A DNA stretch of 64,000 nucleotides, taken from the NCBI GenBank assembly GCA_002269645.1, contig NIVC01002120.1:1-64000 (forward strand). The letters are read 5' to 3'. This DNA comes from Macrostomum lignano (Eukaryota). Shown piece after piece: positions 1-50,919 of the stretch; the first letter of the stretch is position 1, and every line of letters starts with the position of its first letter. Below the pieces are notes generated by a model. It made no database searches. It had not been told where the DNA came from and worked only from the letters and a program-made list of their open reading frames with translations. A program made the translations under genes and the position numbers.

Positions 1-1474
1 GATTTCCAATGGGAAGATGACCCGATTATTACAAAAAATTCCGAAGGAAGGGGCTGTATTGTAGAGGTGGATTTGCAATATACTCGGAAGCAAAAGCAAA
101 AACATATAAATATCCTTTAGCTCCAGAGCATTGTTCAGTTAATGAAGATGATTTATCACAAACACAAAAAGATTATCTTAAAGCAGATAATGCAAAACAT
201 CTAGCAACAAAAAATTAATATTAAATTTACATGATAAGAAAAACTATGTAGTGCATTATAAGCTTCTACAATTTTATGAAAAGCAGGGATTAAAAGTGTC
301 TAAAGTACATCGAACAATATCGTTTATTGAGGAAGATTGGTTAGCTAAATATATTGACTTTAATTCAAATCAGAGACAGATGTCAAAAACAAATTTGAGA
401 AAGATTATTGGAAATTAATGAATAATGCTTTTTATGGAAAAACGGTTGAAAATATTAGAGATAGAACCCAATTCCATTTAGAAAAGGATATTGATAAAGC
501 AAAGAAATATTTCTCAAAACCTAACTTTAAAGACTTTATAAAATTTGATGATAACTTTATGGGTATTCATATGAGAAATAAAACAACAAAATTTCTTAAA
601 CCAATATTTATTGGAATGGTTGTTTTAGATTATGCAAAGCTAGTAATGTATGAATATTATTATGATGTTATAAATAAAACATGGCCAGATAACTATCCAA
701 TATATGCAGACACCGACAGTTTGGTATTTAAGGTTGAAACAGAGGATCGGGCAAAGCCCGCGAACCAAAGGTTCGATGTCTATAAAGATATGGAAAAAAT
801 TAAGGATACATTGGATACCTCCGACTATCCGGATAACCATCCTTTAAAATCAGATCAAATAAAAAAGTTGTACTTAAAATGAAAGATGAATTAAATAGCA
901 AAATCATAACCGAGTTTATAGCAATAAGATCAAAATGCTATGCATTTAAGGTTTTAGGACAGGAGGGAGAGGTAAAAAAATAAAAGGGGTATCAAGAGCA
1001 GCAGTAAAAAGATAACATTTGATGATTATAAAAACGTACTTTTAGATTACCTTAATACAATTGAAAATTATCATGCTCCACAATATCGATTAAATTCAGA
1101 TAAGCATCAGATGTTTGTCATCGAGACAGATAAAAAAACATTAAGTCCATTTGATGATAAAAGGATATTTAGATGATAAAATTAAAACATATCCATATGG
1201 TTTAAAAGAAGAGATAAAAAATATGATAAAAGATAAAAAACAAAAAGAAGATATAATAAGTAAATATAATGAATACAAAGCGGCAATAAATAATTATTAT
1301 TACGATTGTGATTGTGAATCCGAATGTGATTGTGAATATAATACATTTCTAGAATATGAAAAAGATATAGATAATTATTATTCAACATTTCCAAAAGAAC
1401 TTAAAAAATTAAATAAGGAAAAAGTCTTGAATAACTGGAAGAGATTAACAGAAAAATTACTTATCGGTCTGTAA
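1..1474 (+). pseudogene. polB: Protein-primed family B DNA polymerase, C-terminal part, with multiple frameshifts
   Basis: Motifs NNAFYGKTVEN and YADTDS in ORF 418-882. Reading continues across single-base slips as KMKDEL..ITEFIAIRSKCYAF, then SPFDDKR/YLDDKIKTYPYG (ORF 1151-1474). Confidence 0.9.
745..777 (+). repeat. 30-bp double-hairpin element, copy in polB
   Basis: gat CGGGC-aaa-GCCCG c GAACC-aaa-GGTTC gat. Confidence 0.9.
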
Positions 1475-1815
1475 AAAACTAAAGCATGTAATTGTTTGAG
1501 CAAATCATTAACTTCAATTTCATATATTATTGAGCACCAATTATCCTCACAGTCGGCAGGGTAACTTAAACAATCCTTTATTTTTTTCCTAAGTTTTTTT
1601 ATTTTTCTAACCAATCTATCTATTTCAATTTCAATTACTATTTCAGCATAAACAATATCTTGTCTTAAAAAACGTTTTCTTTTATCTATCTCATATCGGA
1701 TGGGAAACATATCGTCCCCATACTCATGATATTTCTGAGATATAATTATATTTATTTTTTTATTAATATCATTAAGTTCACGCTCTTTAGTGATAAGGAT
1801 TTTTATCGTATCCAT
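1378..1815 (-). CDS. Hypothetical viral protein, 145 aa, Lys/Ile-rich, probably coiled-coil
   Basis: ATG-started ORF in the AT-rich element, converging on the polB end; no recognisable motif. Confidence 0.5.
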   Translation of the reverse strand: MDTIKILITKERELNDINKKINIIISQKYHEYGDDMFPIRYEIDKRKRFLRQDIVYAEIVIEIEIDRLVRKIKKLRKKIKDCLSYPADCEDNWCSIIYEIEVNDLLKQLHALVFYRPISNFSVNLFQLFKTFSLFNFLSSFGNVE

Positions 1816-2726
1816 TTTCTTATAAAAAATTTACTTATTCGTCGTCATCCTCCCAAACAGCCGCCAATTTTACAGTCCTATCACTCTTTTTATTATTTGT
1901 TTGTTTTAGTTTAAATTGCAATCCACCCTCGTTGCAGTATTTCATAACAAACGCTTTAGGTTTATTAATAACTAAAACAGGAAAATTTTTAACATCATCT
2001 CCGCTTAGACATAAAATTTTTTGCCCATCTAATTGTAAAAATATGATTGAAGCCCAATAAATTTAACCTGTCTCAAACATACAATATTATATTCTTTATT
2101 CTCCAACATATTGGGTGTGAGATAATTAATCACATTAGAATCGGTTTTGAACCAGCTCTCCATTTTTAATCTAAAAAAATAACAAAAAAATGAAAGACAT
2201 TTATGTTTGTAATAAATGTAATGTGACTATGCACAGAGGCAAACAGCAAACGGAGATATATATCATATGTGTTATTCATGTTCTAAAATATATCAATTTG
2301 AAAAAACAAAAAAGATTGAAAACTCATATTACTATTTTAAAAACACAATTTTAAGAAATCTTACAAGAGACATTTCTGATCCAATTTTAATTCCCGGAAA
2401 TAATGTTTATTTATATAATAACTTTTTCCATTTAAATAAAGGAAAGGGATTAAGTTCGAAAGACCGAAAGGATTTTAATTTTAGTTGGATATTATTTCAA
2501 TTTTCTTATTCGAGAGAATACAAAGTTTATAAGGATAGGTAACATACCTAACGAAATGTTACTGAAAAAGTCATTGGAATTTTTATGTATTGATAAAAAA
2601 TTTAAACCTAGATCAGAAGAGAGTTACCACTTTGGGAAGAATATATAACATATGCATTAAAAAACTAAACAACATTAAGTTCTACGCACTTCCTGACCGC
2701 GGCTTTGTGCCCCAGTAGCAATAGTT

Positions 2727-3309
2727 TCAGGTTCGTAAATGCCTAATGTTTCTATCGGTGGAGCTTTGGGTTTGTCCAACTTCTTTTAATTCCATATCGG
2801 TAAAAGTTTCAACATCTAAAATTCTATTTCTATCTTTTAAATATTTTTCATATAATTCAACCGCGGTTGATAATTCATGAATCGTTATCTCTCCGTCATC
2901 CAATATTTTTTGCACATATAAATATAATGATTTTTATATTGTTGCAACATCTCTTAAGATTTATATTTTCCTTTCTTTTTTTAAGATATAATTTAATTGC
3001 TAAAAGTATTGATAAGTTTCTGATCAATTCAAAACCTGATATTGAGCCAATTGAAATACCTAAAAATAATTGAGATAAATTAAGAGTTGGAATAGATTGT
3101 AAAATACCTAAAACGATTACACATAACATTGATAAGCTTCCAAATCCAATATTGAAAAAATCCATATTTCTTATATGGTTTGAAACTCTTCTTACTTTTT
3201 TAGTATATAAATCATAATCATAATTTATTCGATCAACATTACTTAACATCTGACCTTTACGTTGGTTGAACCGGTCGCGTTCCCATTTATCTGCTTCAGA
3301 TACCGACAT
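2727..3309 (-). pseudogene. Membrane protein of the element (two hydrophobic segments, then ILDDGEITIHE), split by one frameshift near 2900-2915
   Basis: ORF 2896-3309 holds the TM segments. Overlapping ORF 2727-2915 continues as QKILDDGEITIHELSTAVELYEKY. Confidence 0.55.
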
Positions 3310-3622
3310 TCTCGTCTATTTTTAATAGCACCAAAATGAATTCCCCACGCTCTTTGGGGATTTGTCCCGAGCTCAATAGGTATTGTATTGGAGTTATTCT
3401 TTCTTTTTTCTCCCATTTAAATCCTATTTTCCAAAACTCTTGAAGTATAATATGATTTTTTAATAACTTAATTAATTCTTGAAGCTTCTTATTATCCTGA
3501 ACATTTACAGTACTAAATAAAAATTTGGTATGAGATTTGAATGTTTTTATATTTGATTCTTGTTTAGGAATAGGAATAATAACATTATTTTGCCGCATCG
3601 ATGGAGTTCTACTAAAAGCCAT
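3296..3622 (-). CDS. Hypothetical viral protein, 108 aa
   Basis: ATG in the TATATAAAATG context shared by the element's genes. Confidence 0.55.
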   Translation of the reverse strand: MAFSRTPSMRQNNVIIPIPKQESNIKTFKSHTKFLFSTVNVQDNKKLQELIKLLKNHIILQEFWKIGFKWEKKERITPIQYLLSSGQIPKERGEFILVLLKIDENVGI

Positions 3623-3637
3623 TTTATATATAAATAT

Positions 3638-5682
3638 TTAAGTTATTTCGGTTTGTGGCCGTTCCAAATATGCGGTCGCAGCAAAATCATATCCTGCTGA
3701 TGTGCTACCACAAACGGCTGCACCACGAATAAAATGTGCAGCATCCGATCCTCCAGTTCGAGCACCAAAACCCATAAGAGTTCCCGTTTTATCTAAATTC
3801 CCCAAGTTCCGCTATCATATGTAAAAAAGTTTTGCCCAATTAGCGTATATGTATTAGCTGATACATTGTATGTGCTTATTTGATACCAAACTCTTTGATT
3901 TAAAATATTAATTTCAAAAAGATGCCAATCGCCGTTATCAATATTAGCATAGGTTATAGTTTGATCTGCGTCATTAAGAACATCATTACGAACTGTTGCT
4001 CCGTCTGATTTTATATTGCTCCAAACAACCCCAACTCTATCATGCCATTCACTCGCAAACACAATCAAGCCGGCGCGGGTTGTTAACCCGGATCCAAATT
4101 CACTTGTTGGACGTTCGTGACAATATGCATAAAACCAAACAGCGTCAGCTCCATCTCCTGTAGCATTAGCAACTCGGAAATAGAAGGAGGCGGAGATATT
4201 ACGAAAATGGGTGAAATTAAATTGCAACGCTCCAGACTGACCACTTGCTTCATCAGTAATTCTAACTCCATTTTGATAATCAATATAAGTAGCGCTACCA
4301 ACAAAACTTCCAGTTGGAAAAATATCACCGGCTGTGGTTGGGTTTTGATATCCAGTCCAATTGCAAATTACAGGCTCGTACAAAGCGGCATCGATTGCAG
4401 GTATTCCATCCAATTTTATTTTATCGTTAAAAGACATTCGGCCATCCGCCGTTTGTGTTACTCGCGTATCAACATAACCTTTAGTAACAACAGAACTGTT
4501 ATTGTTTATAGTAGAGATATTAGTAATTGTATTACCTCCCATATCAATTGATTGATTAACCACTCCCAAATTTAAATCAAGAATTGTAAACGTCTGTCTA
4601 TAAATCTGGAAGGTTGACAGACCCGGGTTGGTTGAACCCGAGGTTGATGTAAGACAGAACAATCTGAAATATGAATATGTTTTATCAAAATTTTGTGTGA
4701 CATTAATTGTTTGAGTTGAGTTATTTATTGCTACAGAACTATCCGCAGGTATTAATACGTCCCAACTTGTATTGTCATTACTTCCCTCAAATCGCCATGA
4801 TGCTGGGTGCTCGGTTGAAGGTGATGGCCTACCACGTAAATCAATTTTATAACACATTATTGCGGAAGGGCATTGGACTTGAATCCAATAATCGGTTTGA
4901 GTATTATTTGTTGCCCAATCTGTTGAATCATTTCCATCAAACGCTTTCCAACTTGCAAAATCAGTTGTATTAAATGCAGTGCTTGCGGTTATTGCAAAAC
5001 CATTTCCACTCCAATCTGCCATGGTAGGTATGTGACCAGTTTCAACCGTTTGGAATCGATCTTGTTTTGGGGCTCCACCCCCAACTAAATTATCAACCTC
5101 CGTTTTGGTATAGGAATCAGTTATATCTCTTTTTAAATTTAAGGAATTATCAACTTCAGTTTTGCTATAAGAATCAGTTATATCTCTTTTTAAATTTAGG
5201 GAATTATCAACTTCGGTTTTGGTATAGGAATCAGTTATATCTCTTTTTAAATTTAGGGAATTATCAACTTCAGTTTTGGTATAGGAATCAGCAACATTCC
5301 GTTTTAAATTTAGGGAATTATCAACTTCGGTTTTGGTATAAGAATCGGCCGTATTGCGTTTTAAATTTAATGAATCATCTATTTGAGTTCGAGAATAAGA
5401 ATCAGTTATATCTCTTTTTAAATTTAACCCATTGTCAACCTCTGTTTTTGTATATGAATCGGCTACGTTCCGTTTTAAATTTAGGGAATTATCTATTTGA
5501 GTTTTGGTATAGGAATCTGCAACATTTCTTTTTAAATTTAATTTATTATCAATTTCAGTTTTTTTATAACCTTCATCCTCATTAATATATCGGTTATCTC
5601 CGAATGTAACACTTATTCCACCAGAAGTACCACCACCAGTACTTGATGTTCCGTTCCATGAGGGTGTTCCAGAAAATAACAT
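3638..5682 (-). CDS. Fibre/receptor-binding-like protein: 19-aa repeats, F5/8 type C (discoidin)-like domain, TKGYVD linker, ConA/L-lectin-like C-terminus; one frameshift at about 3800
   Basis: ORF 3793-5682. After a missing G in a G-run the frame continues DKTGTLMGFGARTGGSDAAHFIRG... to TAA at 3638-3640. WKAFDG..T.W..WIQV and WRFEGSND are discoidin-type motifs. Confidence 0.7.
5095..5560 (-). repeat. 57-bp coding tandem repeat, about 8 copies (KRNVADSYTKTEVDNSLNL)
   Basis: The period is visible in both DNA (5111 to 5168) and protein. Confidence 0.95.
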
Positions 5683-5692
5683 TTTTTACTGT

Positions 5693-6163
5693 CTATTTTA
5701 TAGAGTCTAAAATCGTGCCATCGGCACGCATGCTTTGCATGATCATCTTAAATACTTCGGGGTTTACACGAGCTTCATTCGAAAGTCGATATAAAAAATA
5801 CAACGCCGCTTGCCCGCAATAACTTTTATCAAATGTTTGAAATTGTTCGTGATAATCTCCACATAAACGATTTTTAGTATGATTAAATTTATCTTTTATT
5901 TCCTGTAACGGAGGAAGCGCGTATGAATCAAAAAAATAAACAAGTTTTGGTTTTGAATAAACTGCTGACCAATGAACACCATTTTCTTTTGTTGTTTCAA
6001 TATTAACAATGAAACATCCATATTGTGGTAAGTCTTTTATCTCATCTCGCATAACACATCTAAATGGTTTTATTTTTAACTGCCGCGCCCAATTTGTTAA
6101 TTCGATATTGCTTGTTGTGTCTGTTCCATATCTTTGTTTAAAATCATCCCACGTCATGGTCAT
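5693..6163 (-). CDS. Adenain-like cysteine protease (Polinton PRO)
   Basis: NGVHWSAV (His), YFFDSY (Asp), Q..DKSYCG (Gln/Cys) in adenain order. Confidence 0.9.
   Translation of the reverse strand: MTMTWDDFKQRYGTDTTSNIELTNWARQLKIKPFRCVMRDEIKDLPQYGCFIVNIETTKENGVHWSAVYSKPKLVYFFDSYALPPLQEIKDKFNHTKNRLCGDYHEQFQTFDKSYCGQAALYFLYRLSNEARVNPEVFKMIMQSMRADGTILDSIK
5712..5744 (-). repeat. 30-bp double-hairpin element, copy at the protease C-terminus
   Basis: Minus strand: gat CATGC-aaa-GCATG c GTGCC-gat-GGCAC gat. Confidence 0.9.
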
Positions 6164-6164
6164 T

Positions 6165-6377
6165 TTATGTTCCTGAAAAACTTTTGGTTTTAGTTAGTTT
6201 AGTAGGTGTGGGTTTTAACAATTCCTTTCTTATTTTATCAGCTTGTAACTGCCTTAATTTTGCTAGTTCTAGTTCGTAATTATCTTCAGCTTTTTTAACT
6301 TTTTCTGATTGTTTTTTTAGTAAATTATTATTATTATTATCGTGCTTTGCACGCGAACATGTTGTTCGATTACCCAT
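6165..6377 (-). CDS. Small basic protein, 70 aa; N-terminus encoded by a double-hairpin element
   Basis: ATG in TAAAAATG context; sits tightly between the mCP and protease genes. Confidence 0.55.
   Translation of the reverse strand: MGNRTTCSRAKHDNNNNNLLKKQSEKVKKAEDNYELELAKLRQLQADKIRKELLKPTPTKLTKTKSFSGT
6338..6370 (+). repeat. 30-bp double-hairpin element, copy in the small ORF
   Basis: tat CGTGC-ttt-GCACG c GAACA-tgt-TGTTC gat. Confidence 0.9.
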
Positions 6378-6382
6378 TTTTA

Positions 6383-7212
6383 CTATAGGAAACGGACAAA
6401 GTCCGCGAACCTTCGGTTCGATAAAGTTAAATCCTGTTTTATACGTAAAATTACTGTTATTGATTGCCCACCAAAACTTATTAATCTATCGCTTTCATCT
6501 ACAATCCTAATATAAATTGATTGAACATTATATTGATTTAATGGGTAATATATTGGGGTTTGAGGTGATACAATCATTTTCTCTCCAATTGGAACAGCAA
6601 GAAATGGGATGAATAAATAATTCCACGTTGAACCAAAACTCCATTATTATCTGTTATATAACCACCGTTTGAAATGTCGGTTGTTATATTAATTGTATTT
6701 ACTCCACCCTCTATATTTCCAACTGTATCACCGGTGCTTGATGTGGTAACTATTCAGGAATTAAATCCAAGTATGGTTCTGAGTGAATTTGCAATTGTGA
6801 AATCAACCTGATATCCGGATCCTAGTGATAGTGTGAATCTGCCAGACGGTAAATCAACACCTATAACAATTGCTCCTGCTACCCAATCACCATTAGTTGT
6901 TAATTCTCCTTCTATATAAGCATTCAAATCAGTATAGCTATACGCTCCTGGGTTAACGCTAAATGTTGTCCAATTGGCTCCGGAATCTTTAGAATATCTA
7001 AATTGATTATTTGTTGCATTAATTAATTGAGGCATGTTGAAAACCGAAAATAGAATTAAACCTATTTGATAACTTAGGCTTTGATCAAGTTGTAATGGAT
7101 CGCGCAATTGAATCCGTTGCTCGCTGGTTGTCATTATAAACTGTAATGTTGTACTAAATTTTGAATTAGTTCGATCTACCAATTGTTTTATAGCATTTAA
7201 ATTTGTAGTCAT
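6383..7212 (-). pseudogene. Minor capsid (penton) protein, broken by TGA at 6754-6756 and a frameshift near 6610
   Basis: QIGL..FSVFN, NNQFRY, PGAYSYTDLN and TILGF, then VNTINITTDIS, VPIGEKMIVSPQTPIYYPL and IYIRIVDESDRLISF match the Polinton mCP pattern. Position next to the ATPase also fits. Confidence 0.8.
6390..6422 (+). repeat. 30-bp double-hairpin element, copy at the mCP C-terminus
   Basis: aaa CGGAC-aaa-GTCCG c GAACC-ttc-GGTTC gat. Confidence 0.9.
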
Positions 7213-7229
7213 TTTTATAGTGGGAAATT

Positions 7230-7250
7230 AATCGGACGAAGTCCGCGTGC
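7230..7250 (+). repeat. Partial double-hairpin element just past the ATPase stop codon
   Basis: aat CGGAC-gaa-GTCCG c GTGC; the second hairpin is truncated. Confidence 0.75.
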
Positions 7251-8044
7251 TATGTCTCTTCTTCCTCATTATCTTCTTTTATCAAATTTGTTAAAATTCT
7301 ATGTTTCCTTTCTAACCTCGGATTGATATAAATATGTTTGTATTGGCTATCATCCCAAATTTTTTTACACATACTTTTAAATGGTTTTGCATCCAACCCG
7401 GGATTAAATCTAGCGTGAATATTTTGTAGATCATAGTTATCTAAATCAAACATTACACAACAGCTAGCATTCTTTTTTATAATCGATTCTAATTCTCTAA
7501 AGGATTGAGTAAGATAAAAAGCTCCAATTCCATCTCCTCTACCACTAACAAAAATTTCCTTTTGCAATTCTTGATCACCGTCATTAATACAATCATCAAA
7601 AATAATTAGTGTTTTATCATGTTTTGGAATTTGATCATAGGCTAATCGGGTTGATACTCTAACAGTTGGGGCTCGATCGGACGAAGTCCGCGACCCTTCG
7701 GGGCGATCGGTGATGTTTTCTGGCTGTTGTGCCATTGTTTTACATAAATCCTCAATGTCTGCTAGATTAAATCGCGGTTCGTCATCATCCTCATATTGCT
7801 CATATGCTCTTAACATTCTAAACAAGACATCTTTTTTTAATTTGTTTTTTAATCCATGTTTAAGAAATTCATAATATTTTATTCTAGGTTTGTTAGTATA
7901 AATTATTAAATTATTATAGTCTAACATTCCATCTGTTGTTAATAAATCGTAAACAAAGTGTGTTTTTCCTTTACCTGATCCTCCGATTACTAAACAAAGA
8001 AAAGGATCATTTGGAAATATCTTATCGTGTTTTGCCTTTACCAT
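7250..8044 (-). CDS. A32/FtsK-like DNA packaging ATPase, 264 aa
   Basis: Walker A GGSGKGKT, Walker B LIIFDD, and an SGRG...YLTQ motif. Confidence 0.93.
   Translation of the reverse strand: MVKAKHDKIFPNDPFLCLVIGGSGKGKTHFVYDLLTTDGMLDYNNLIIYTNKPRIKYYEFLKHGLKNKLKKDVLFRMLRAYEQYEDDDEPRFNLADIEDLCKTMAQQPENITDRPEGSRTSSDRAPTVRVSTRLAYDQIPKHDKTLIIFDDCINDGDQELQKEIFVSGRGDGIGAFYLTQSFRELESIIKKNASCCVMFDLDNYDLQNIHARFNPGLDAKPFKSMCKKIWDDSQYKHIYINPRLERKHRILTNLIKEDNEEEET
7675..7707 (+). repeat. 30-bp double-hairpin element, copy inside the ATPase
   Basis: gat CGGAC-gaa-GTCCG c GACCC-ttc-GGGGC gat (one mismatch in stem 2). Confidence 0.9.
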
Positions 8045-8095
8045 TTTTAAAGAAATAATTTAAATAGGCGCGATGGTCGGAGACCTGCACTCATT

Positions 8096-9570
8096 TTACA
8101 ATGGCGCGTCCCGAACAATCGTGCCATCAGCTTTAGCAATTGACATATATTCCTCTAGAAACAATACGTGGGCGTCAAGTGCCTGATTACCGGTTTTATT
8201 AATCTCTAACATATAATTAAGTCCAATATTGGCTACGTTTTCTTTCTGTGCCGTTAGATCATAAACAACCACTGGATGAATGTTTAGAAACTCTGTGGGT
8301 GTGTACTGAGGGACGGCATATGCTTCATTTTTGGCATAATCGTGATAATATTTTATAAAATCATTAACATCATTATTTGCAATATTTAGATTAAGAGGAT
8401 CTTTAACCGGATAGTATTGGTCATCAACCTGCAGGCGGATATTCTGAACATTAAACTCGTTAATAGCTGCAGCCGCATTGTCTGTTGCGGTGGCTGCTTG
8501 TTCTGCTATGGCACCGGATTGAAGCCAATATAAATCCCCATTTGCTCTTTTACTCCTTCTATTTGTTATCTTAAACCAAACAAAAATATATCTCACCCGA
8601 CGTTTTGATGTCAGTATTTGCCACTGGAATGAATCCTGGTTATTATTAATGGTTCGCATAAAATGTCGACGATTCAAATAAAATATTTCCTGATCATGCG
8701 TTAACTGATTATCGATGTGTTTTAAAAGTGGGGCTGTTACCTCAATAGTTGGTACGACTAATTGAATTGAATCTATACGAACTGCTATATCGGTTGAAAT
8801 TGAGGTTCCATAAAGTATCCTAGGCTGATATCCACCAGATATTTGCAACTGTATCCCAAATTTTAATCCTTTCCATACCCGATTTGGTGAAAAGAACCCA
8901 AATAGTGGAAAGATTGAAAAGTCTTTGCTCATATGCTGTTGCTGTGGTTAAAACCGCTACTGGGAATTTATTCTGACGAGCTATAAAACCTGTATTAATA
9001 TCTTTTGTATTAGTCATGGTGGTTACAACTGGAACTATGTTTGTATTAAGGTAAACAATTAGCGCTGCAGTATCTGCACCGGCTGCGTTTTGTACATTAG
9101 GGAAAACTACTGCTTGTCCATTACCCCTTATCAGGCATCCACCCAACACTATCACCAACTTGTTTTGATAAATAAGTATAATTTAAATGTTTCAAAACTC
9201 CATTAATCTCTGCGGGGTTTGATGATGTCTCAACCTCAGCACCATTAACAGTTAGTTGAGCTTGGGAAAAACATTTATAAAACCAATCATTTTCTATTAT
9301 TATTCCGGATCGATCTGCGATATCTCCGGCTGCAAGAGCAGTTCCATCATTTCTAGTATACAACCATCTAACGCGGAAAAACGCATTTTTCATATCCAAT
9401 ATAGTGTTGGTTGCGCCGATGTCAAAAGTTACCGTTCCAGTAGTAAAGTTATTTGAATTATCACTTGTTGGTAGGGTATAATTTAAATCTCTTGCTCTGA
9501 CCTCATTAATATACTGTCGGTGCTTTTTGAAATGAAATTTATCACTCCACATAGTTTTTGTTTCAGCCAT
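8096..9570 (-). pseudogene. Major capsid protein (double jelly-roll), about 490 aa, in three frames (slips near 9123 and 8933)
   Basis: ORFs 9121-9570, 8820-9158 and 8096-8932 join. Motifs FSQAQLTVNG..VE, FPLFGF, IQLVVPTI, RYIFVWF, IRLQVDDQYYP and VYDLT. Size and position next to ATPase/mCP fit an MCP. Confidence 0.8.
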
Positions 9571-9604
9571 TTTTTTAAGTTAAAAAAGTTTTTTATGTTA
9601 AAAA

Positions 9605-10276
9605 ATGAGTCAATTTATGGACGTTGATGGAGAGTTAGCGATTTATAAAGAGAAGCAAAGATATTCTGATTTTGTTAGAAATTTACAAAAAAGAAAGTTA
9701 GGAATACAATTAGCGGGTGAAAGATTTGCTGCTCCTTTTGTTAATCCTATTACTGGGAAAATTAGTGAACTAGAAAAAACAGATAAAGATCTTCTGGAAA
9801 AAATTGCTACGAATACTGAGCCAAAAGAGGATGAAATTTTGGATGAGCCGCCTGCTTATGATGTTGATCAAGCTCAATTGAGAGTTGCAGAGATTAGGGC
9901 TGCAGAAAGGGGTGGAGTTGATGAATATCCGAGAGCTGCACCAACTAGTATTGCTGTGACAGATTTAGGTAATAATAATTATCGAATTGGTGGAGTTGAT
10001 AAAAATCGAAATGAACTATATAGAGAATTGGGCGGAGCATATAATATTATTATGAACCCTAGGGTAAAATTTAACCCTGAATTATATACTAGGGATGAAT
10101 TAGTAAGTGCAAAAATTTTTTATGATGAGTTGGGAGTAAGAGCTGTTAAAAATACAAGTTTGTATAAAAGAATTATTATTTCTATAAATAACAAACCAGC
10201 TGTTGGAGAAGGATTTAAAACACCGCGAAAACTTGTTTTAGCTGCTGCGAAAGCTGCTGGACATACTGGAGTTTAA
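9605..10276 (+). CDS. Hypothetical Polinton protein, 223 aa, divergent from MCP
   Basis: Clean ORF with TAAAAAATG start context; function not assignable. Confidence 0.7.
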   Translation: MSQFMDVDGELAIYKEKQRYSDFVRNLQKRKLGIQLAGERFAAPFVNPITGKISELEKTDKDLLEKIATNTEPKEDEILDEPPAYDVDQAQLRVAEIRAAERGGVDEYPRAAPTSIAVTDLGNNNYRIGGVDKNRNELYRELGGAYNIIMNPRVKFNPELYTRDELVSAKIFYDELGVRAVKNTSLYKRIIISINNKPAVGEGFKTPRKLVLAAAKAAGHTGV

Positions 10277-10304
10277 TTAATTGTTAAATTTATTTTTTTA
10301 TAAA

Positions 10305-10934
10305 ATGGAAACTAAAAAGATTTGTAGTCGATGTAAAGAAGAGAAACCAATGACTAAAGATTTTTTTAGATGGAGAAATGATTCAAAAAAATTTAGAAAT
10401 GATTGTCGATCTTGTGAGAAAGTTATATCAAAACTGTGGAATAAAAACAATAAAGAATATATAAAAAATAAATATCACACTGATGAAAATTACAAACTTA
10501 TTATCACCTCACGAAATAGAATAAATCAACTATTAAAATCAAATAATGCTCGAAAAAATAATCATACTATTGATTACCTTGGTTGCTCAATTGAATTCTT
10601 TATTGATTGGTTAAATTTCACAAAACATTATTATGTTCCAAAAGACTATGGTGGTGCTTTACATATTGATCATTTTATTCCTGCTTCTTCATTTAATTAC
10701 AAAGACGAAGATCATATGAAAAAGTCTGAACATTGGACAAATAAAAGATACTTAGCTGCTATTGATAATAAAACTAAATTTGTTAAACAACCAACAATTG
10801 AAGAATTTGCAAAACAATTGGTGCTATCATGTATTTTTAAGGCTATAAAAAATGAGCAATCATGCGACGCATGCGAACCAAAGGTTCGATCGGACGAAGT
10901 CCGCGTTCCTTCGGAACGATCAATTAGTATTTGA
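10305..10934 (+). CDS. Free-standing HNH/EndoVII-like homing endonuclease with N-terminal Zn ribbon
   Basis: CSRC...CRSC zinc ribbon; YLGCSIEFF..WL; LHIDHFIPASSF...HWTN...DN. The ATG at 10305 (TAAAATG) is preferred over the TTG at 10281. Confidence 0.8.
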   Translation: METKKICSRCKEEKPMTKDFFRWRNDSKKFRNDCRSCEKVISKLWNKNNKEYIKNKYHTDENYKLIITSRNRINQLLKSNNARKNNHTIDYLGCSIEFFIDWLNFTKHYYVPKDYGGALHIDHFIPASSFNYKDEDHMKKSEHWTNKRYLAAIDNKTKFVKQPTIEEFAKQLVLSCIFKAIKNEQSCDACEPKVRSDEVRVPSERSISI

Positions 10935-12492
10935 AGGAGGATTTTTAGATGTTCAAAAAGGATTAACAAGCTTACCACCAATATTTACTACTGGGAGGTA
11001 TACGGGTGAGCTACACCTACCATCAATGAACTTCACAGGTTATCCCGTGGCCTGAGTGAGGAAGGCAATGTCCTTGCTAGTCACTATTTGTGGCGACATC
11101 TCCAAATTGCGTGAAACCCGTCATACAGCTTCAAGTACCACTTCAATTGAGAAATCTTTTGAACGAACAGAGGTAACTCCTCTTCCCAAAGGTAAAAAGC
11201 TTGAAGACATGGTGGCAATGCGCAGCCAAGCTCCTAAGTATTTTAAATATAAGGAGAAGGTTCAGAGAGCAGACGGAGATGGGCGGTAATTATCGCCGCT
11301 TAAGGTGTGCTCCAGCCTCTTTCGAAAGATTGAGGGTAAACTACCCGGCACTCGCTTAGATTTGAGATTAAATCCTGACAATACTCCAAAATCTGATTCA
11401 ATTCCAATAAATGGGATTGATTGGTTAGCATACTATCACGACTTAGCATATAGAGATGCTGACAAGAACCCGCCCGAGGAAGCATTAAGATTAAAACATG
11501 AAGCCGATCAAAAAATGATTCAAGGATTAGATAACTTGCAGGGATTATCGGTAGGGCAAAGATTAACTAGGTGGATGGTTAAAAAGATTTTGCAGTCTAA
11601 AGTTAAATTTGGTTTGGGAATTAATTATAATCAACATGGAAATAATTGTGTCGAGTGTTTATTATTAAGTGGTGGTGGGTTAAGTTCTGATGAGGCAAAG
11701 ATTCTTCATAAAGAATATCGAAAACCTAAATTTTATAGAAAAATCATGAACTTCAAAAAGAATGAAATTTGGTATGCTGATTTAATGTCGATGCCGAACG
11801 AAAGAGGATATAAATATATCTTAACCATATTAGATGGTTTTACTCGATACGCGTGGGCTGTTCCTTTAAAATCCAAAAAGGGAGAGGAGGTTGCTGCTGC
11901 TTTTAGAAGTCTTGGAGAAAAAAGCGAAAGATTGTGTGTTGATGAAGGAAAAGAATTTTACAATCCTCATATGTATAAATTGTATCATTTTGAAAAAGGA
12001 AAAGAAAGGAAAAAAGACGCGAATGGGGAGTATATTAATAAAATTTATTCTATTTATGGAGAGAGTAAAAACGCATTAATAGAAAGATTTAATCGAACTT
12101 TAGGTAAGAAATTATGGTTTCAGTTTAGTCTTAATGGTAACCAAAAGTGGGTAAAAATATTACCAGACGTAGTGAAAGATTATAACAATTCATATCATTC
12201 AGCTATAAAGATGACTCCTCAACAAGCTTATAACAATCCTGAAAACGTTAAAGTTACTTTTGGAAAATTTGAAAAAAATAAAAAGAAATCTTTTAAGGTT
12301 GGTGATTCTGTTTATATCTATAAATGGAAAGATAAGTTTGAAAAAGGAAGAAAAGGATATTGGAAGATAAGTGAGAAATTTACTATCAGTAAAGTTTTAA
12401 ATACCAATCCTACAACCTATATAATTGCTGATAAGGACGGTGAAGAAATATTGGGTTCGTTTTATGAGAACCAACTAATATCAGCGAACTAA
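10852..12492 (+). CDS. PLA2-integrase fusion, 445 aa after splicing (exons 10852-11040 and 11344-12492)
   Basis: Joining the exons restores ELHLPSMNFTG|PGTRLDLRL...YYHDLAY (parvovirus VP1u-type PLA2). The rve DDE core follows: WYADL, CVDEGKEF, IERFNRTL. Exon 1 is 189 nt and exon 2 is 1149 nt, in frame. Confidence 0.88.
10858..10920 (+). repeat. Two tandem 30-bp double-hairpin elements in the HNH / PLA2-INT overlap
   Basis: aat CATGC-gac-GCATG c GAACC-aaa-GGTTC gat CGGAC-gaa-GTCCG c GTTCC-ttc-GGAAC gat. Confidence 0.92.
11041..11343 (+). ncRNA. Group I self-splicing intron (IE/IC1-like core), 303 nt, no internal endonuclease ORF
   Basis: P1 CAGGU/GCCUG with U.G at the 5' splice site; P3 CATCTCC/GGAGATG; P4 TTGCG/CGCAG; P7 GAGCA/TGCTC; P8 GGCGGT/ATCGCC; P9 with GAAA loop; P9.0 AG/CT. 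Conserved blocks AAATTGCG, GCAGCCAAG, GTTCAGAG and TTAAGGTGTGCTCC. Confidence 0.9.
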
Positions 12493-12502
12493 GTTCGAAC
12501 AA

Positions 12503-12727
12503 TTACTTGAGACAACATGGTAGTAAATTTTTTATAACAAACAAAAACAATATTATTACTATAATTGTTACTAATATTATTATTGACATTTGTTCAACTG
12601 TTATCAAACTTAAATTTTCATTAAGTTCATTAATCGGCACATTTCCGATATAGGAATAGTTTACCTTCATTTTTTTATATATATTTTTCATAATAAAAGT
12701 CGTTTCTGTTATAGAATAATAATTCAT
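12503..12727 (-). CDS. Small protein with one C-terminal TM segment, 74 aa
   Basis: Hydrophobic stretch IIILVTIIVIILFLFVI; TAAAAAAATG start. Confidence 0.55.
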   Translation of the reverse strand: MNYYSITETTFIMKNIYKKMKVNYSYIGNVPINELNENLSLITVEQMSIIILVTIIVIILFLFVIKNLLPCCLK

Positions 12728-12743
12728 TTTTTAAATATTTTTT

Positions 12744-13058
12744 TCACATAAAAATTTCACTTTCATTCTCTGAATCGCTGGTTTCATATGAACTATTTGT
12801 TGATTCGGAATCTGTTGATCTAACCTCCCAATCATCCGAATTTAAATACTCTCCAAGTTGAAATATTAACTCACCCTCTTGTTCTAAATCATACATCTCA
12901 TCTAGCTCTAATGGATAAAGTTTTAGGTCGTGCTTGTCGTCATATTTTAAATAAACTTCATCAATTATTCCATTCAAAATATGTTGTTTTATTATCTCTG
13001 CATTTTTAGCAACAGTCTCAAAAGTATCACTAACAGAAAAGGTGTAAACTCGGGTCAT
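12744..13058 (-). CDS. Small acidic protein, 104 aa
   Basis: TAAAAATG start; acidic Ser-rich tail. Confidence 0.6.
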   Translation of the reverse strand: MTRVYTFSVSDTFETVAKNAEIIKQHILNGIIDEVYLKYDDKHDLKLYPLELDEMYDLEQEGELIFQLGEYLNSDDWEVRSTDSESTNSSYETSDSENESEIFM

Positions 13059-13114
13059 TTTTAGTAACAGAAAAAGACCCTTCGCGCCTGCGGCGCGGGC
13101 AGGGGTTATAGAGT

Positions 13115-13383
13115 AGTAGTATAGAAAAAGACGCTTCTAGATCAGACCTTATTTTAATGGCCGTTTGTAAGGTCTTAAGAGGGGGGACGCGAGGGGGGTG
13201 TTGGGGAGTGTTTGGAAGTGTTGGGAAGTGATTTTTATTGTTAGGGGTGATTATGGGTGATTAGATGTGTTAAGGGTGTTTAGATGTGTTTTTTTATTTA
13301 CCCCCCCGTGTCCCCCCTCTAGACCCTTAAAACGGTCATTAAAAAAGTGCTCTGGGTCTAGAAGCGTCTTTTTCTATACTACT
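13115..13383. repeat. Terminal imperfect inverted repeat: arms about 85 bp, outer 27 bp perfect, G/T-rich spacer
   Basis: AGTAGTATAGAAAAAGACGCTTCTAGA (13115-13141) is the exact reverse complement of 13357-13383. Confidence 0.92.
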
Positions 13384-16279: not shown

Positions 16280-19200
16280 ATGCAGCGGCCGAAATCCCTG
16301 CAGCTGACTCTGCCCACTGCCGCGGCCTCCGCTGCGGCCGAATCCGCACCCGCGACCACCTCAGCGCCGGCTTCGGCGTCGACCTCCGCCGCGTCGCCTG
16401 GCGTTGAGGCCATGGAGGAGAACGAACCTCTGACCTCGCCGGCTAAGGCGGACGGCCACGGCGGCTCCAACGGTGAGCAGTCGGTCCGAACGCCGACCAA
16501 CGACATCACCAACATCGCCGATTCCGGGCCCGCGGCGACACAGGCCGCGCCGCAGCAGCTTCAATCGCCGCCGCCAGCCCAGACCCAGCCGGCGCCGCCC
16601 TCGTTGCTCCTCACGCCGCCCCCGCCGCTTTCACTCCAGTCAGCTTTGCCGGCTCGGAGGCCGGCCAGGCCGTCATCGCTGCTGCTCGTCACCCCCGCCG
16701 GCCAGTGGGCCCCGCCGGCCACGCCCCAGCAGCCGGCGGCAACCACGGCAGCCTCCGCCGCCGCCTCCCCGTCCCGGCGCCGGTCCGCGCGCTGCCAAGC
16801 CGGCGGCCGACCTCCCTCTGCCTGCCTTCTCGCTGGACACCCGCTGAGGCCGCCAGCCAGTCGCCGCAAGCTGCAGCCGCCTCCCCTGCGACGCCGACCC
16901 AGCCGACGCCCTCGCCGCTAGGACTGCGCCGGCCGTCGCCGTTCCCGGAGCTTCCGCCTGCCGTAAAGCGGCTTCGGCCAAGCGGCGGCGGCAGCGGCCT
17001 TGCATTTACGCCGGCGGCAAATTTTCTGACCCAGGCACCGGCCGCCACGCCGAGCTCCGAGTTGCCGCCGTCGCCCTTTCCCCCGCCGACGCCTAGCAGC
17101 ACCCTGACGCTGTCCTCGTCCTCTTCCCCATCCACCGAGCCGACAGTCGCCGCAGTTGTTGCCGCCGCTAGCGCCGCGGCCGCTGCCGTTACGGGCGCCG
17201 TCGAGGATGCCGAGATGGCGTCTCCGACCGCCTCCACCGCCTCCTCGACCCTCAGCTGCAGCTCGCAGCTCGGCTTCGTCAAGCCCTACTGGGTGCCGGA
17301 CCGGGACGCCCCGCTCTGCATGCGGTGCGGCGCCAAGTTCACCGTGCTGCGCCGGCGCCACCACTGCCGCGCCTGCGGGCGCGTCCTCTGCTCCGCCTGC
17401 GCCTGCCACACGGCCCGCTTGGCCTTCCTGGGCGGCGCCAAGGCTCGCGTCTGCGCCGCCTGCCACCAGCAGCTGACGCTGCCGCCGCCTCCACCTCCGC
17501 CTCCGCTGCCACCTCCATCGGCGCCTCCGCCACAGCGGCCGCCTGGAGTCCCCCGCCCCGGACTGGCGCCGCAGCCGCCCCGCAGCGTGGTCTTCGAAGA
17601 CGGCGTTCGACCCGGCGCTGTCAGCCCCGACCGCAGAAACGGCCTGGAGCCGAGCCTCGCCCCGCTGGACGGCTCGCAGCTGCCGCCGCTGTGCAGTCAT
17701 GCGCCGCCTCTCGAAGATGCCGAGGCCGCCCTGGCAGCGGGCCGGACGCTGAGCTACCGAGTCTGCCGCAGCGTCCGGGTGACCGCCCGCCTGCTGCAGT
17801 CGCTGCCCTGCTGCACCCCGGCCGGCTCGGCCTGGTGGCTGCTGCTGAGCCGCGGCCTGAGCACCGTTGGCCAGGCGGAGCTGTTCCTGCTCATTCAGCG
17901 GGACGACGGCGAGGCGCTGCCGCCGCCGCACGCCTTCGCTCTGGTGTACTCGGCTTACGAGCGGGCCTACTCGGGCGGCTGGCTGGGCCATCTGGACTTC
18001 CTGCCGGCGCCGAGGCGTCTCGGCCCGTTGCTAGGCGACCGGAGCCACGCCGGTTTGTTGCTGTTCCGGCCGGGTCGCCTGCACTGCACGCTGCACCTGG
18101 GGCTCCCGGCTGAGGCCGGAGGGCAGCCGCCGCTCTGTGGACTGCTGGTGCTCAGGTGAGGGGAATTTGAAGCTCGGGGAATTTGAGGCTTGGGGAATTT
18201 GAAGCTTGGGGAATTTGAAGCTTGGGGAATTTGAAGCTTGGGGAATTTGAAGCTTGGGGAATTTGAAGCTTGGGGAATTTGAAGCTTGGGGAATTTGAAG
18301 CTTGGGGAATTTGAAGCTTGGGGAATTTGAAGCTTGGGGAATTTGAAGCTTGGGGAATTTGAAGCTTGGGGAATTTGAAGCTTGGGGAATTTGAAGCTTG
18401 GGGGGAACTTGAAGCTTGGGGAATTTAAAAGCTTGAGGGGATTTGAAGCTCGGAAAATTTGAAGCTTTGGGAATTTGAAGCTTGGGGGGAACTTGAAGCT
18501 TGGGGAATTTAAAAGCTTGAGGGGATTTGAAGCTCGGAAAATTTGAAGCTTTGGGAATTTGAAGCTTGGGGGAATTTGAAGCTTGGGGAATTTGAAGCTT
18601 AGGGGAATTTGAAGCTTAGGGGAATTTGAAGCTTAGGGGGGTCTGAAGTTTAGGGGAACTTGAAGTTTAGGGGAATTTGAAGCTCAGGGGAGTCTGAAGT
18701 TTAGGGGAACTTGAAGTTTAGGGGAATTTGAAGCTTAGGGGAGTCTGAAGCTTAGGGGAATTTGAAGCTTAGGGGAATTTGAAGCTTAGGGGAATTTGAA
18801 GCTTAGGGGGGTCTGAAGTTTAGGGGAACTTGAATCTTAGGGGAATTTGAAGCTTAGAGGAATTTGAAAGGATTGTGAAGTGTAAAAGCCAGCGAATTTT
18901 GGTGTGATCGGAAGTGACCCAAGTCCTTTTTAGTCGCATTTTGAGGTAAGAAAATTGTAAATAATTGTGGCAGCTTTTAGCGAATGGCGTCATATATTTC
19001 CCCCAATAAATTGTCAGCCTTCGGGGCAAAGCCTTCAGCTTCCGAGCGCGCAGTTTCCACCGGGAATTCCACACCCCCAGGTCGTTCGCCGCGAACGCTA
19101 ATTCGGGTCAATGGAAGCCCAGCCTGATGGAGCGCCCAGCCTCCCCCTGCTTACCTCGCTTGCCCCGACAACCCCCACCCCTGATAAGACGCGTCGCCAG

Positions 19201-36400: not shown

Positions 36401-37616
36401 ACGCCGCGTCTCGGCGTCCCTGAGCGCGCGGTAGTAGCGCCGCGGTGGCCGCTTTGGCGGACGGTAGAGCGGGTCCCGAAGCCGAAGGTCGCAGATGAGC
36501 AGCCGATGGTCGGACAGCAGAGCCAGCGGCGTAATGGTGCGGCAGTTGGTGACGCGGCGGCACTCACGAAAGCGCATAAGCACGTGGTCGAGCTGTGCCA
36601 GCCTCCGCGTAGCGTTCCGGCCGCGTGCGTTCCGCCGCCTCTGCTTGCAGCCGACGAAGGTCGCGAGCCTGCCCGGTGACTTGCGGAATCTGGTGTTGGC
36701 CGACACCATGTCCTCTCTCTCCAGGAAGTCCTCTAGCGCTCCGGTGTTGCCGTTCTCGCGAGCTGTCACAAACAGCGATCGCTCGGACCTACGCAGAACT
36801 GCGTTCAGGTCTCCGAGAATGACCACTGTGTCACGTTGCGCCATCTCCTCCACCTGTACTCGAATATCAATATGAATTTTGGAATCACATGTATTTTAAA
36901 TGGAACACATCGAAAATCGCTCCTGCTCAGAGCCAAAGTTACATATCGAGCTGAAACTTGACCAATAGTCGTTTCACGGTTGCAGTTTACTCTGTGTAAA
37001 GTTTTGTCAAGATCAGTGAAGCAGAAGTACCTGTACTCGAATATCAATATGAATTTTGGAATCACATGTATTTTAAATGGAACACATCGAAAATCGCTCC
37101 TGCTCAGAGCCAAAGTTACATATCGAGCTGAAACTTGACCAATAGTCGTTTCACGGTTGCAGTTTACTCTGTGTAAAGTTTCGTCAAGATCAGTGAAGCA
37201 GAAGTACCTGTACTCGAATATCAATACGAATTTTGGAATCACATGTATTTTAAATGGAACACATCGAAAATCGCTCCTGCTCAGAGCCAAAGTTACATAT
37301 CGAGCTGAAACTTGACCAATAGTCGTTTCACGGTTGCAGTTTACTCTGTGTAAAGTTTCGTCAAGATCAGTGAAGCAGAAGTACCTGTACTCGAATATCA
37401 ATACGAATTTTGGAATCACATGTATTTTAAATGGAACACATCGAAAATCGCTCCTGCTCAGAGCCAAAGTTACATATCGAGCTGAAACTTGACCAATAGT
37501 CGTTTCGCGGTTGCAGTTTACTCTGTGTAAAGTTTCATGCTACGGGTTGCTTTTAGTATTTTGCTTTTGTTAAAATTCGAATATCAATGCGAATATCAAT
37601 GGGGAAACAAATGCGT
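33426..37616. mobile_element. Foldback-type element with long modular TIRs (177-bp subrepeats) and 8-bp TSD ATTTCCTG
   Basis: 33426-34340 and 36852-37616 are inverted copies; ATTTCCTG occurs at 33418-33425 and 37617-37624. Confidence 0.85.
34339..36853 (-). mobile_element. 5'-truncated RTE-clade LINE (partial endonuclease plus RT) with one in-frame stop at 35318-35320 and a (TTG)n tail
   Basis: ILGDLNA and LDHVL (APE); RGICLQ, QNGFRP.RST, FVDFRKAFDSV, VLQGDTLAP and GYADD (RT); (AAC)n at 34339-34357. Confidence 0.93.
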
Positions 37617-48990: not shown

Positions 48991-50919
48991 ATGGGATCGA
49001 AATCCTCAAAGCTGAGTCCAGAGCAGCTGCACGACCTCGTGGAGCAGACGCAGTTCACCGAGGAGGAGCTGCAGGACTGGTACCGCGGCTTCATCAAAGA
49101 CTGCCCGAATGGCGAGCTGAGCAGGCCCGAGTTCCAGAAGATCTACGCCAACTTCTTTCCCTATGGAGACGCCTCCAAGTTTGCTGACCACGTGTTCCGC
49201 ACCTTCGACCGGGACGGCAACGACCGCATCGACTTCCGCGAGTTCATCTGCGCTCTCAGCGTCACCTCCAGGGGCCGTCTGGAGCAGAAACTGTCCTGGG
49301 CCTTCTCCATGTACGACCTGGATGGAGACGGCTTCATCAGCAGGGAGGAGATGCTGGAGATTGTGAGGGTGAGTCGCTGCAGGATACTGGATATTATGTG
49401 AAGGGTGAGTGCTCTAGGGTGCTGGAGATTGTGCGGAGGGTGCTGGAGATTGTGCAGAGGGTGCTGGAAATTTGCAGAGGGTGCTGGAAATTGTGCAGAG
49501 GGTGCTGGAGATTGTGCGGAGGGTGCTGGAGATTGTGCAGAGGGTGCTGGAGATTGTGCAGAGGGTGCTGGAGATTGTGCAGAGGGTGCTGGAGATTGTG
49601 CAGAGGGTGCTGGAGATTGTGCAGAGGGTGCTGGAGATTCTGCGGAGGGTGCTGAAGATTGTGCAGGAGTACTACATAATAAACTTATTTATCTAGAGCA
49701 TGGGTAGACTTACTGACTGAAGAAATTCCACACAATAATATCGTGCGCTCCGCTCATTTTATTGATTTCGCCAATCAAAGGGACAATGGAGCGGGGCGCC
49801 TATGAGCTGCAATTGCAGAGTTCCCAGGTGCGGAATCAGTGCAGTTGCTGGCCTGTGCTAGCATTGCTTGTCACAGCTGGTTTGTCTGGGCCGGCTGTTG
49901 TTCTGTTTTCCAACTCCCGGGATTAATGGAGTCACCCGGCAAGGGAACCGGAGGCGGTCTCAGCGGAACCCAGAGCGAGCGGCTGCTGGGTGCCGGTACG
50001 GCCGGGGCAAAATGCGAAGACACAGGGGAAATCTCTGCGGAAATCGATAATTCTCTCCCAGGAGGCAAATACAGGACCTCTTGAACCCTTATTGATCCGG
50101 CAGGTTCCGCGGTACTCAGCGCCTCATTACAGGTCCGACACAGGCATTTTGAGCGGCATTGCGTTTTGTTTTAACGTTCCAGCAGCAGGACATGACTTCT
50201 GCCCATCCTGGGCGGATACTGTATGCAGGCACGCACATGCTCGTCGCTCATTCAGGGTGTACAGCGGCCCCCGACTGTCTAATTGTCAGGCATTTACACC
50301 CTGTGTCTTGGAGTTAACCCTCATGGCTGTGAATTTCACGACAACCCCAGGGCCACCTCCCGAACGAAAAATCCTTGCCGCACCACTTAATCATGGCACT
50401 ACGAATGACGCCAATCTTGTGTGATCCGTGCTCATGTCTGCCGTTGCTGAGCTACCAACCAGATTGCATTACGATCGAGTCAATCCAACTTGCATTTATG
50501 TTTTTTTTGAAATAAAAATTCTGATGAGGCATAAAAATTTAGATAGCAAAATGGGCATTCATATGCCCAAAAGACAGTAGAGTAAACGCATTTTGCAAGA
50601 AAATTTTAATGACGAGGCATAGAAATTTAGATAGCCATGCGCATTCATATGCCCAAAAGACAGTAGAGTAAACGCATTTTGCAAGAAAAAGCTGCAACTG
50701 GACAGTCACTGCCGCCGCCCGCAGGCCATCTACAGCATGGTTGGCATGGTGATGCGCATGCCGGAAGACGAGGCGACCCCGGAGAAGCGGACGGATAAAA
50801 TATTTCGCCAAATGGACAAAGACTTGGACGGCCGGCTGTCGATGGAGGAATTTATCGAGGGCGCCAAGTCGGATCCGAGCATTGTGAGGCTGCTGCAGTT
50901 CGATCCGAACCAGCGCTGA
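48991..50919 (+). CDS. NCALD: Neurocalcin/hippocalcin-like neuronal calcium sensor, 190 aa; exons 48991-49368 and 50725-50919
   Basis: MGxxxS myristoylation motif; [62 protein letters not shown]; GT-AG phase-0 intron. Confidence 0.93.
49419..49667. repeat. 21-bp intronic tandem repeat resembling the exon end (GTGCTGGAGATTGTGCAGAGG)
   Basis: About 12 copies; compare the exon end ATGCTGGAGATTGTGAGG|GT. Confidence 0.92.

Follow-up and report, generated by a model that had tools for sequence, protein, structure and literature searches.

The question raised by this locus is what a group I intron is doing inside a protein-coding gene of a Polinton/adintovirus-type element integrated in an animal genome, and what keeps it there. 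The window, that is, the whole stretch of 64,000 nucleotides of Macrostomum lignano DNA that was analysed, carries one copy of such an element, and its features are collected in Table 1. The answer that we consider likely is that the intron is the immunity partner of a GGNCC-cutting nuclease devoid of a methylase, within an element integrated many times in the animal genome. The nuclease and the purge of GGNCC, both overlooked in the first-pass annotation of this DNA, are the most unusual part of the system.

Table 1. Position of the intron, the interrupted gene, the element and the neighbouring host genes in the window.
Feature	Position	Strand	Details	Evidence
Group I intron, type A	11041..11343	+	303 nt; no ORF; ends in A	RF00028; helices; intron-less alleles
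P1	11036-11043/11047-11054	+	U11040-G11050 at the 5' splice site; 3' end overlaps in-frame TGA 11053-11055
P2.1 hairpin	11080..11094	+	Equivalent loop houses the nuclease ORF in type B introns
P3	11097-11103/11275-11281	+	Encloses P4, an extension that we take to be P5abc-like, and P6/P6a (11097..11281)	7/7 Watson-Crick pairs
P7 and P8	11265..11313	+	P7 = 11265-11271/11308-11313
P9.0, P9 with GAAA loop, terminal A11343	11314..11343	+	P9.0 = AG/CT
HNH/endonuclease VII-like gene, free-standing	10305..10934	+		PHROG 1035, E 5.5e-11
Exon 1, PLA2-integrase gene	10852..11040	+	Ends in the loop Gly codon	ORF list; start conserved across copies; intron-less homologues
Exon 2, PLA2-integrase gene	11344..12492	+	Remaining PLA2 domain, then rve integrase; in-frame ATG 11515
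Element, right part, Polinton/adintovirus-type	1..13383	.	GGNCC-free
DNA polymerase fragments	21-1176		Several frames in the window copy
Capsid gene	8096-9570		Several frames in the window copy
A32-like packaging ATPase	7250..8044	-		Pfam Pox_A32, 29 bits
Element end	13115..13383	.	27-bp inverted arms 215 nt apart; ends ACTACT; host flank from 13384
Host gene, FYVE protein resembling SARA/endofin	16477..18159	+		Pfam FYVE; Atlas clusters with SARA_C, score 0.91
Host gene exon, hippocalcin/neurocalcin-like	48991..49401	+		PDB search, E 6e-63

The presence of a group I intron, which the first-pass annotation had proposed at this very place, is practically certain. The covariance model RF00028 matched positions 11031-11334 with a score of 64.2 bits (E 7.2e-16), above the gathering score of 50 bits, so that the Infernal-type comparison suggested there as a check came out in favour of the assignment; a whole-window Rfam scan with fast filters left the intron undetected. 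A base-by-base check agreed with the helices previously drawn by eye (P1, P3, P4, P7, P8, P9, P9.0, and a partial P10): P2, P2.1, P4, P6/P6a, P8, and P9 all pair, and P10 is paired at four of its six positions. P7, formed by GAGCA/TGCTC, is paired at all five positions and contains the guanosine-binding pair G11267-C11312. The compensatory change read in this helix, with its G-C pair retained, is borne out by the comparison of lineages, in which four forms were found (GAGCA/TGCTC, GACTT/AAGTC, GACTG/CAGTC, and GACTA/TAGTC), each paired 5/5. The periphery comprises P2/P2.1 and the P5 extension, with P9.1/P9.2 absent; the intron may be IC1-like. Free-energy folding of the intron gave a z of -1.84, which is weak as support because the P3/P7 pseudoknot is beyond the reach of that method.

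Both boundaries of the intron are defined by intron-less alleles from the same genome (L083, L084, and L187), in which the loop is read through in one frame, and also by the intron-less proteins P0001 and P0003-P0005. By comparison with these alleles and homologues, the interruption of the gene is precise and in frame. The intron separates the Gly codon from the Pro codon in the G-P-G loop of PLA2, where it had already been located; we take this loop to be the calcium-binding loop. The stop codon previously noted at 11053-11055 in the unspliced frame is present, and the frame said to be restored by excision is the one in which natural intron-less alleles read the same site. In two public runs, contigs that still contain the intron extend across its 3' junction, and thus the intron is not an assembly artefact. 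On the basis of P9.0 and the homologues, a 3' end at 11343 is favoured over the in-frame alternative G11334, where the Rfam match ends. A spliceosomal intron with its GT at 11039 was rejected, as it breaks the reading frame.

The interrupted gene combines PLA2 and integrase. Exon 2 gave a Pfam match to rve of 31.9 bits (E 1.7e-7), just under the cut-off of 32.6, and a weak match to PF08398, the latter reaching 36.9 bits on the intron-less allele L083; the PLA2 loop motif aligned weakly with a parvovirus VP1. The DNA polymerase of the element, of the protein-primed B type, was recognised through a PHROG match and through a sister copy whose left part matched Pfam DNA_pol_B_2 (25.9 bits), and the capsid through a Pfam match in family B, with none for the split capsid gene of the window. 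The splitting of the polymerase and capsid frames may be due to decay or to assembly error. ORF 5693-6163, a candidate adenain-like protease, had no match in the domain and PHROG libraries. Of four sister copies checked, three are bordered by 6-bp target duplications, the contigs concerned being 273, 571, and 966 kb long, and the left flank of one sister copy equals the right flank of the window copy. These duplications and the animal-type neighbouring genes uphold the earlier reading of a virus integrated in an animal genome; the SARA-like FYVE and hippocalcin/neurocalcin families are, we assume, restricted to animals. The 27-bp inverted repeat at the element end could fold as a terminal stem, and its motif occurs 147 times in the host genome.

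Exact matches to the intron core in the host genome amounted to 114 of type A, 25 of type B, and 24 of type C, a total of at least 163 cores of three types, these counts being lower bounds in which haplotype duplicates are possible. In every copy read, the three types occupy the same codon, and they have peripheral sequence in common and different cores. When 41 distinct family A stretches were compared with the window, divergence was 2.3% in the intron, 9.3% in third positions of the exons, and 1.5% in first and second positions, and P4, P6, and P7 were without recurrent change in the same copies. Such low divergence of the intron would be expected if its fold is under selection or if homing has been recent. 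The type C intron (L080-L082) has P2 and P5 sequence in common with types A and B but a catalytic core unlike theirs, suggesting domain shuffling, and its 3' exon starts differently from those of the other types. The host genome also contains 21 intron-less alleles, probably representing only two independent lineages. All 21 read GGC at the splice position, whereas intron-bearing copies read GGT, which makes it unlikely that the intron-less alleles arose by precise loss of the intron.

The intron family is common to the element and giant viruses, from which group I introns have been reported. Two viral contigs, L085 (1440-1600) and L086 (1-900), matched the type A core pattern. Both share the unusual P7 GAGCA/TGCTC, and the intron of L086 splits a gene for RNA polymerase and contains an ORF of the GIY-YIG type. 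Further scans of viral contigs confirmed none of 10 candidates obtained with the PLA2 query and gave no match to the P5 pattern or to the 3'-junction pattern. The type A core pattern had no match in prokaryote genomes and, in phage records, only a weak 48-nt match in four records.

A terminal G is nearly universal in group I introns. The last base of the window intron is A11343, and of the 79 type A copies matching the 3'-end pattern, 59 share this A and the other 20 have a G; a terminal G was found in type B introns and in the intron of the metagenome contig L097. The coral mitochondrial intron without a terminal G has its exons ligated correctly in vivo, with more than 70% left unspliced, according to the excerpted account (PMC6545197), and on this precedent the window intron is classed as an A-ending group I variant. 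Terminal A and precedent taken together make splicing of the 11041-11343 copy less likely, and still possible: we would put accurate splicing in vivo at slightly less than an even chance, and this copy probably splices less well than its G-ending sisters. Among the matches listed, contigs of four of 23 public runs (three guessed to be RNA, one unlabelled) contained no exon-exon joint, a result that is neutral on splicing, since contigs report presence only and diverged copies may escape the 88% threshold of the search. The first-pass annotation had made integrase expression depend on splicing, and this part need not hold, as the in-frame ATG at 11515 is located upstream of the rve domain. Judging from the reading frames, the integrase could be produced from unspliced RNA through this internal ATG, and only the PLA2 domain would clearly need splicing.

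Type B introns carry an ORF in the loop of P2.1 that matches the restriction nuclease family PF09553 (Eco47II; 31.1 bits), as do 15 of 16 homologues. Its predicted model has a pLDDT of 91.8, with DdmD, which is no type II enzyme, as the top fold match, EcoO109I as the second, and AvaII among the others. In family A, a free-standing gene directly upstream of exon 1 is 59-69% identical to the intron-borne nuclease; this gene lies 452-500 nt upstream of exon 2 in 28/28 copies examined, a gap that fits exon 1 plus the intron. The slot upstream of exon 1 in family A is occupied by the HNH gene in 56 and by an Eco47II-like gene in four of 60 loci, some of them repeated. The window's own element has the HNH gene in this slot and no Eco47II-like enzyme, and the search for homologues of the HNH gene returned one weak match. 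The link between nuclease and intron extends to contig L097, where a PLA2-integrase gene has an intron at the same site (RF00028, 80.6 bits) encoding a 55% identical nuclease. In addition, the tails of 10 out of 163 homologous nuclease proteins correspond to read-through of the intron core. Conversely, out of the 19 contigs with an intron-less allele, none is among the 78 contigs with a nuclease match.

More distant homologues, about 30% identical, were found on viral and metagenome contigs. Of the 54 loci with a length of 4 kb or more, 51 have an ORF with C5-methyltransferase motifs next to the homologue, and Pfam confirmed three of these neighbours. RF00028 had no match in 10 viral loci with a free-standing distant nuclease homologue, and in a BLAST of 90 distant-homologue loci only L097 resembled the intron. 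A search for C5-methyltransferases with PF00145 placed none of its 12 host-genome matches on the 78 nuclease contigs. As no cognate methyltransferase of this type was found, the element nuclease is not classed as a restriction-modification system. Eco47II is taken here to cut GGNCC, a site for which no statement was found in the literature looked up. Most likely, the element nuclease also cuts this word, and we hold it probable that the nuclease recognises GGNCC and that the intron masks its site. Among relatives, AvaII cuts GGWCC and EcoO109I cuts RGGNCCY, as given in excerpts of PMC7337904.

The word composition of the element points in the same direction. Over 19.3 kb, family A does not contain GGNCC even once, where 14.6 sites would be expected (Poisson 5e-7), and of the 512 strand-merged 5-mers no others than its two forms are missing. 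In the host flank, 100 sites were observed and 116 expected, and three related viral contigs without intron or nuclease had 16, 29, and 9 sites against 13.1, 27.8, and 4.4 expected. Family B with the intron likewise had no GGNCC (4.2 expected), a deficit that is weak when taken by itself, and an intron-less copy of family B had one site in 5.5 kb (3.1 expected), this sole site being the insertion site itself; the intron-less copies are 98% identical to the intron-bearing ones and thus do not constitute independent evidence. Gly-Pro codons always spell GGNCC, and the ORFs of the window contain no Gly-Pro dipeptide (5.1 expected). A local order-2 control under-counted GGNCC in host DNA too (33 versus 64), and because of this bias only the maximal-order figures were relied on. 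In the giant-virus nuclease loci, the most depleted word was CCNGG (0.36), with GGNCC at 0.79; methylation there would make a purge unneeded. CCWGG and CANTG are also under-represented in window positions 1-13383, perhaps as traces of other nucleases.

The model that we propose starts from the observed intron and its position and copy numbers, the family and placement of the nuclease, the absence of the word, and the mutual exclusion of nuclease and intron-less allele. An ancestor of the element, homologous in its nuclease to type II restriction-modification loci of giant viruses, would have acquired the restriction enzyme from them without the methyltransferase. Lacking methylation, the virus would have erased every GGNCC from its own genome, in which the word is indeed absent, except for one last site, that of the PLA2 loop, which could not be recoded because Gly-Pro always spells GGNCC. 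The intron, located between these two codons, would mask this site in the DNA, and its removal from the RNA would restore the reading frame. The nuclease could then attack co-infecting viruses that are unrelated or have no intron, and it could also drive homing, so that the intron would stay fixed. The window copy would be an ORF-less derivative whose neighbouring slot now holds the HNH gene. Since GGNCC occurs about every 500 bp of host DNA, expression of the nuclease would have to be restricted somehow or confined to a lytic phase. Several observations count against the model: the terminal G is absent from the window copy and from 59 of the 79 copies, the window's own element has the HNH gene and not the Eco47II-like enzyme, and the 21 intron-less alleles all read GGC-CC and are still cuttable by a GGNCC enzyme. 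Its farthest-reaching part, namely that the intron replaces the methyltransferase of a restriction system, splices in animal cells, and that the enzyme is directed against competing viruses or host DNA, is tentative, and we lean somewhat against it as a whole. If true, an animal mRNA encoded in the nucleus would harbour a functional group I ribozyme whose last base is A.

The purge could instead have been imposed from outside by a restriction-modification enzyme of a giant virus, with the intron as a shield and the element's own nuclease as a captured passenger devoted mainly to homing. Pairs of Eco47II-family nuclease and methyltransferase are common in giant-virus and metagenome loci, the type A core occurs in two viral contigs, one of them L086 with its interrupted RNA polymerase gene and GIY-YIG ORF, and family B copies without intron and nuclease are purged too. 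Nevertheless, we find this explanation unlikely: nuclease and intron go together in two families of the element and also in the independent contig L097, the nuclease is never on a contig with an intron-less allele, and no helper virus was identified. Even less probable is an ordinary mobile intron served by a conventional long-site homing endonuclease, in which case the absence of GGNCC would be a chance of composition. Introns do often target conserved motifs, and the excerpted PMC6083498 describes free-standing endonuclease VII-type homing enzymes beside ORF-less introns, which the HNH gene of the window calls to mind; however, chance accords poorly with 0 sites against 14.6, with only two missing words among 512, and with normal counts in three relatives, the kin of the enzyme are short-site restriction enzymes, and the purge itself points to a site of five bases.

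A weightier alternative concerns the A-ending copies, which might be dead for splicing or nearly so, with the integrase made from the internal ATG or provided in trans and the intron persisting as a DNA shield or a relic. The terminal A and the in-frame ATG 11515 would fit such a state, as would the frameshifted polymerase and capsid of the window copy, be it through decay or assembly error. Yet these copies are the majority type, with an intact core and low divergence, and the coral intron without terminal G ligates its exons in vivo in the excerpted report (PMC6545197). This alternative is possible, if doubtful in our view, and it can be combined with the masking model proposed above. Finally, that the element comes from a contaminant or symbiont and not from animal chromosomes is very improbable. 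The window contig does start inside the element, leaving the left junction outside it, and one of four copies is without a target duplication, but the remaining duplications are on contigs of up to 966 kb, the window contig bears animal-type genes, and all listed runs fall under one species label.

The masking model combines features known from several systems. The type II restriction-modification enzymes AvaII and EcoO109I, together with PF09553, resemble the element nuclease in family, predicted fold, and a GGNCC-type word, whereas in the element no methyltransferase was found and protection appears to consist of site loss plus the intron. PD-(D/E)xK restriction-like folds are also associated with group I introns in I-Ssp6803I and I-Bth0305I, which belong to separate groups in the classification excerpted from PMC3424549, I-Ssp6803I having a 17-bp site. 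The collaborative homing of F-CphI and the psbA intron of cyanophage S-PM2 (PMC6083498, in excerpt) resembles the mode of action proposed here; in contrast, the present host is an animal, the main nuclease descends from type II restriction enzymes and is both free-standing and intron-borne, and it seems that a word of five bases had to be purged from the whole genome of the element. In Bodo saltans virus (PMC5871332) and phage PhiPA3 gp210 (PMC11620839), the intron masks the target of a nuclease, as we propose for the element, interference with competing viruses was proposed or demonstrated, and ORF-bearing introns have ORF-less sisters as in the element, but the enzymes in the excerpts of both sources are of the HNH or GIY-YIG type and the viruses are non-integrating ones of protists or bacteria.

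The setting of the intron also has partial precedents. The first-pass annotation knew of no group I intron in Polintons; this would stand for animals, and does not for the Polinton-like viruses of the protists Paulinella, Desmodesmus, and Rhodomonas, which have RF00028 introns (PMC12220804). Like the present one, those introns, of about 300-380 nt, are in genes of integrated viruses; in the cryptophyte they are in a short gene before the capsid gene, and the excerpted text of that paper describes neither a nuclease nor a purge. In open-licence PMC and bioRxiv texts, searches turned up neither an animal Polinton with a group I intron nor a restriction enzyme that lacks a methylase and has its site masked by an intron. 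The ND5-717 intron of hexacorals is also a group I intron without terminal G in an animal protein gene, but it is mitochondrial, obligatory, and vertically inherited (PMC6545197, in excerpt). Adintoviruses with PLA2X share with the element polymerase B, rve integrase, packaging ATPase, and a parvovirus-like PLA2 gene; the excerpted main text of PMC8502044 contains no group I intron, and in the element PLA2 and integrase form one frame. A 2013 review confines group I introns of the nucleus to the rRNA genes of microbial eukaryotes (PMC3679873).

With more than 160 copies in a protein gene on animal chromosomes, ribozyme function in animal nuclear transcripts becomes directly testable. Among related sequences, the nuclease is found paired with a methylase in giant viruses, as a separate gene next to the intron, and within the intron itself, a series that may capture the change from a restriction enzyme to one used for homing or competition. 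The model makes a sharp prediction, namely that the nuclease cuts GGNCC, and a cheap screen follows from it, the search for missing short words in other Polintons.

Several minor observations concern the element and its surroundings. The fibre-like protein encoded at 3793-5682 on the reverse strand combines 19-residue tandem repeats with an F5/8 type C domain. Palindromic inserts of about 30 nt, possibly a tiny mobile element, are present in the window at 746-777, 6339-6422, 7231-7248, 7676-7707, and 10859-10920, and in intron loops of L059, L061, L065, and L072; they occur in coding genes, in exon 1, and in peripheral loops of the intron, and differ between copies. Eleven of the 12 element ORFs checked (window positions 1378-13058) have the start context AAAATG, which resembles poxvirus-type late starts and may hint at a helper virus. 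In L191 (4725-5357), an endonuclease VII domain is situated within the N-terminal part of the element DNA polymerase. Outside the element, a non-LTR retrotransposon at 34388-36895 on the reverse strand is inserted in a tandem repeat array.
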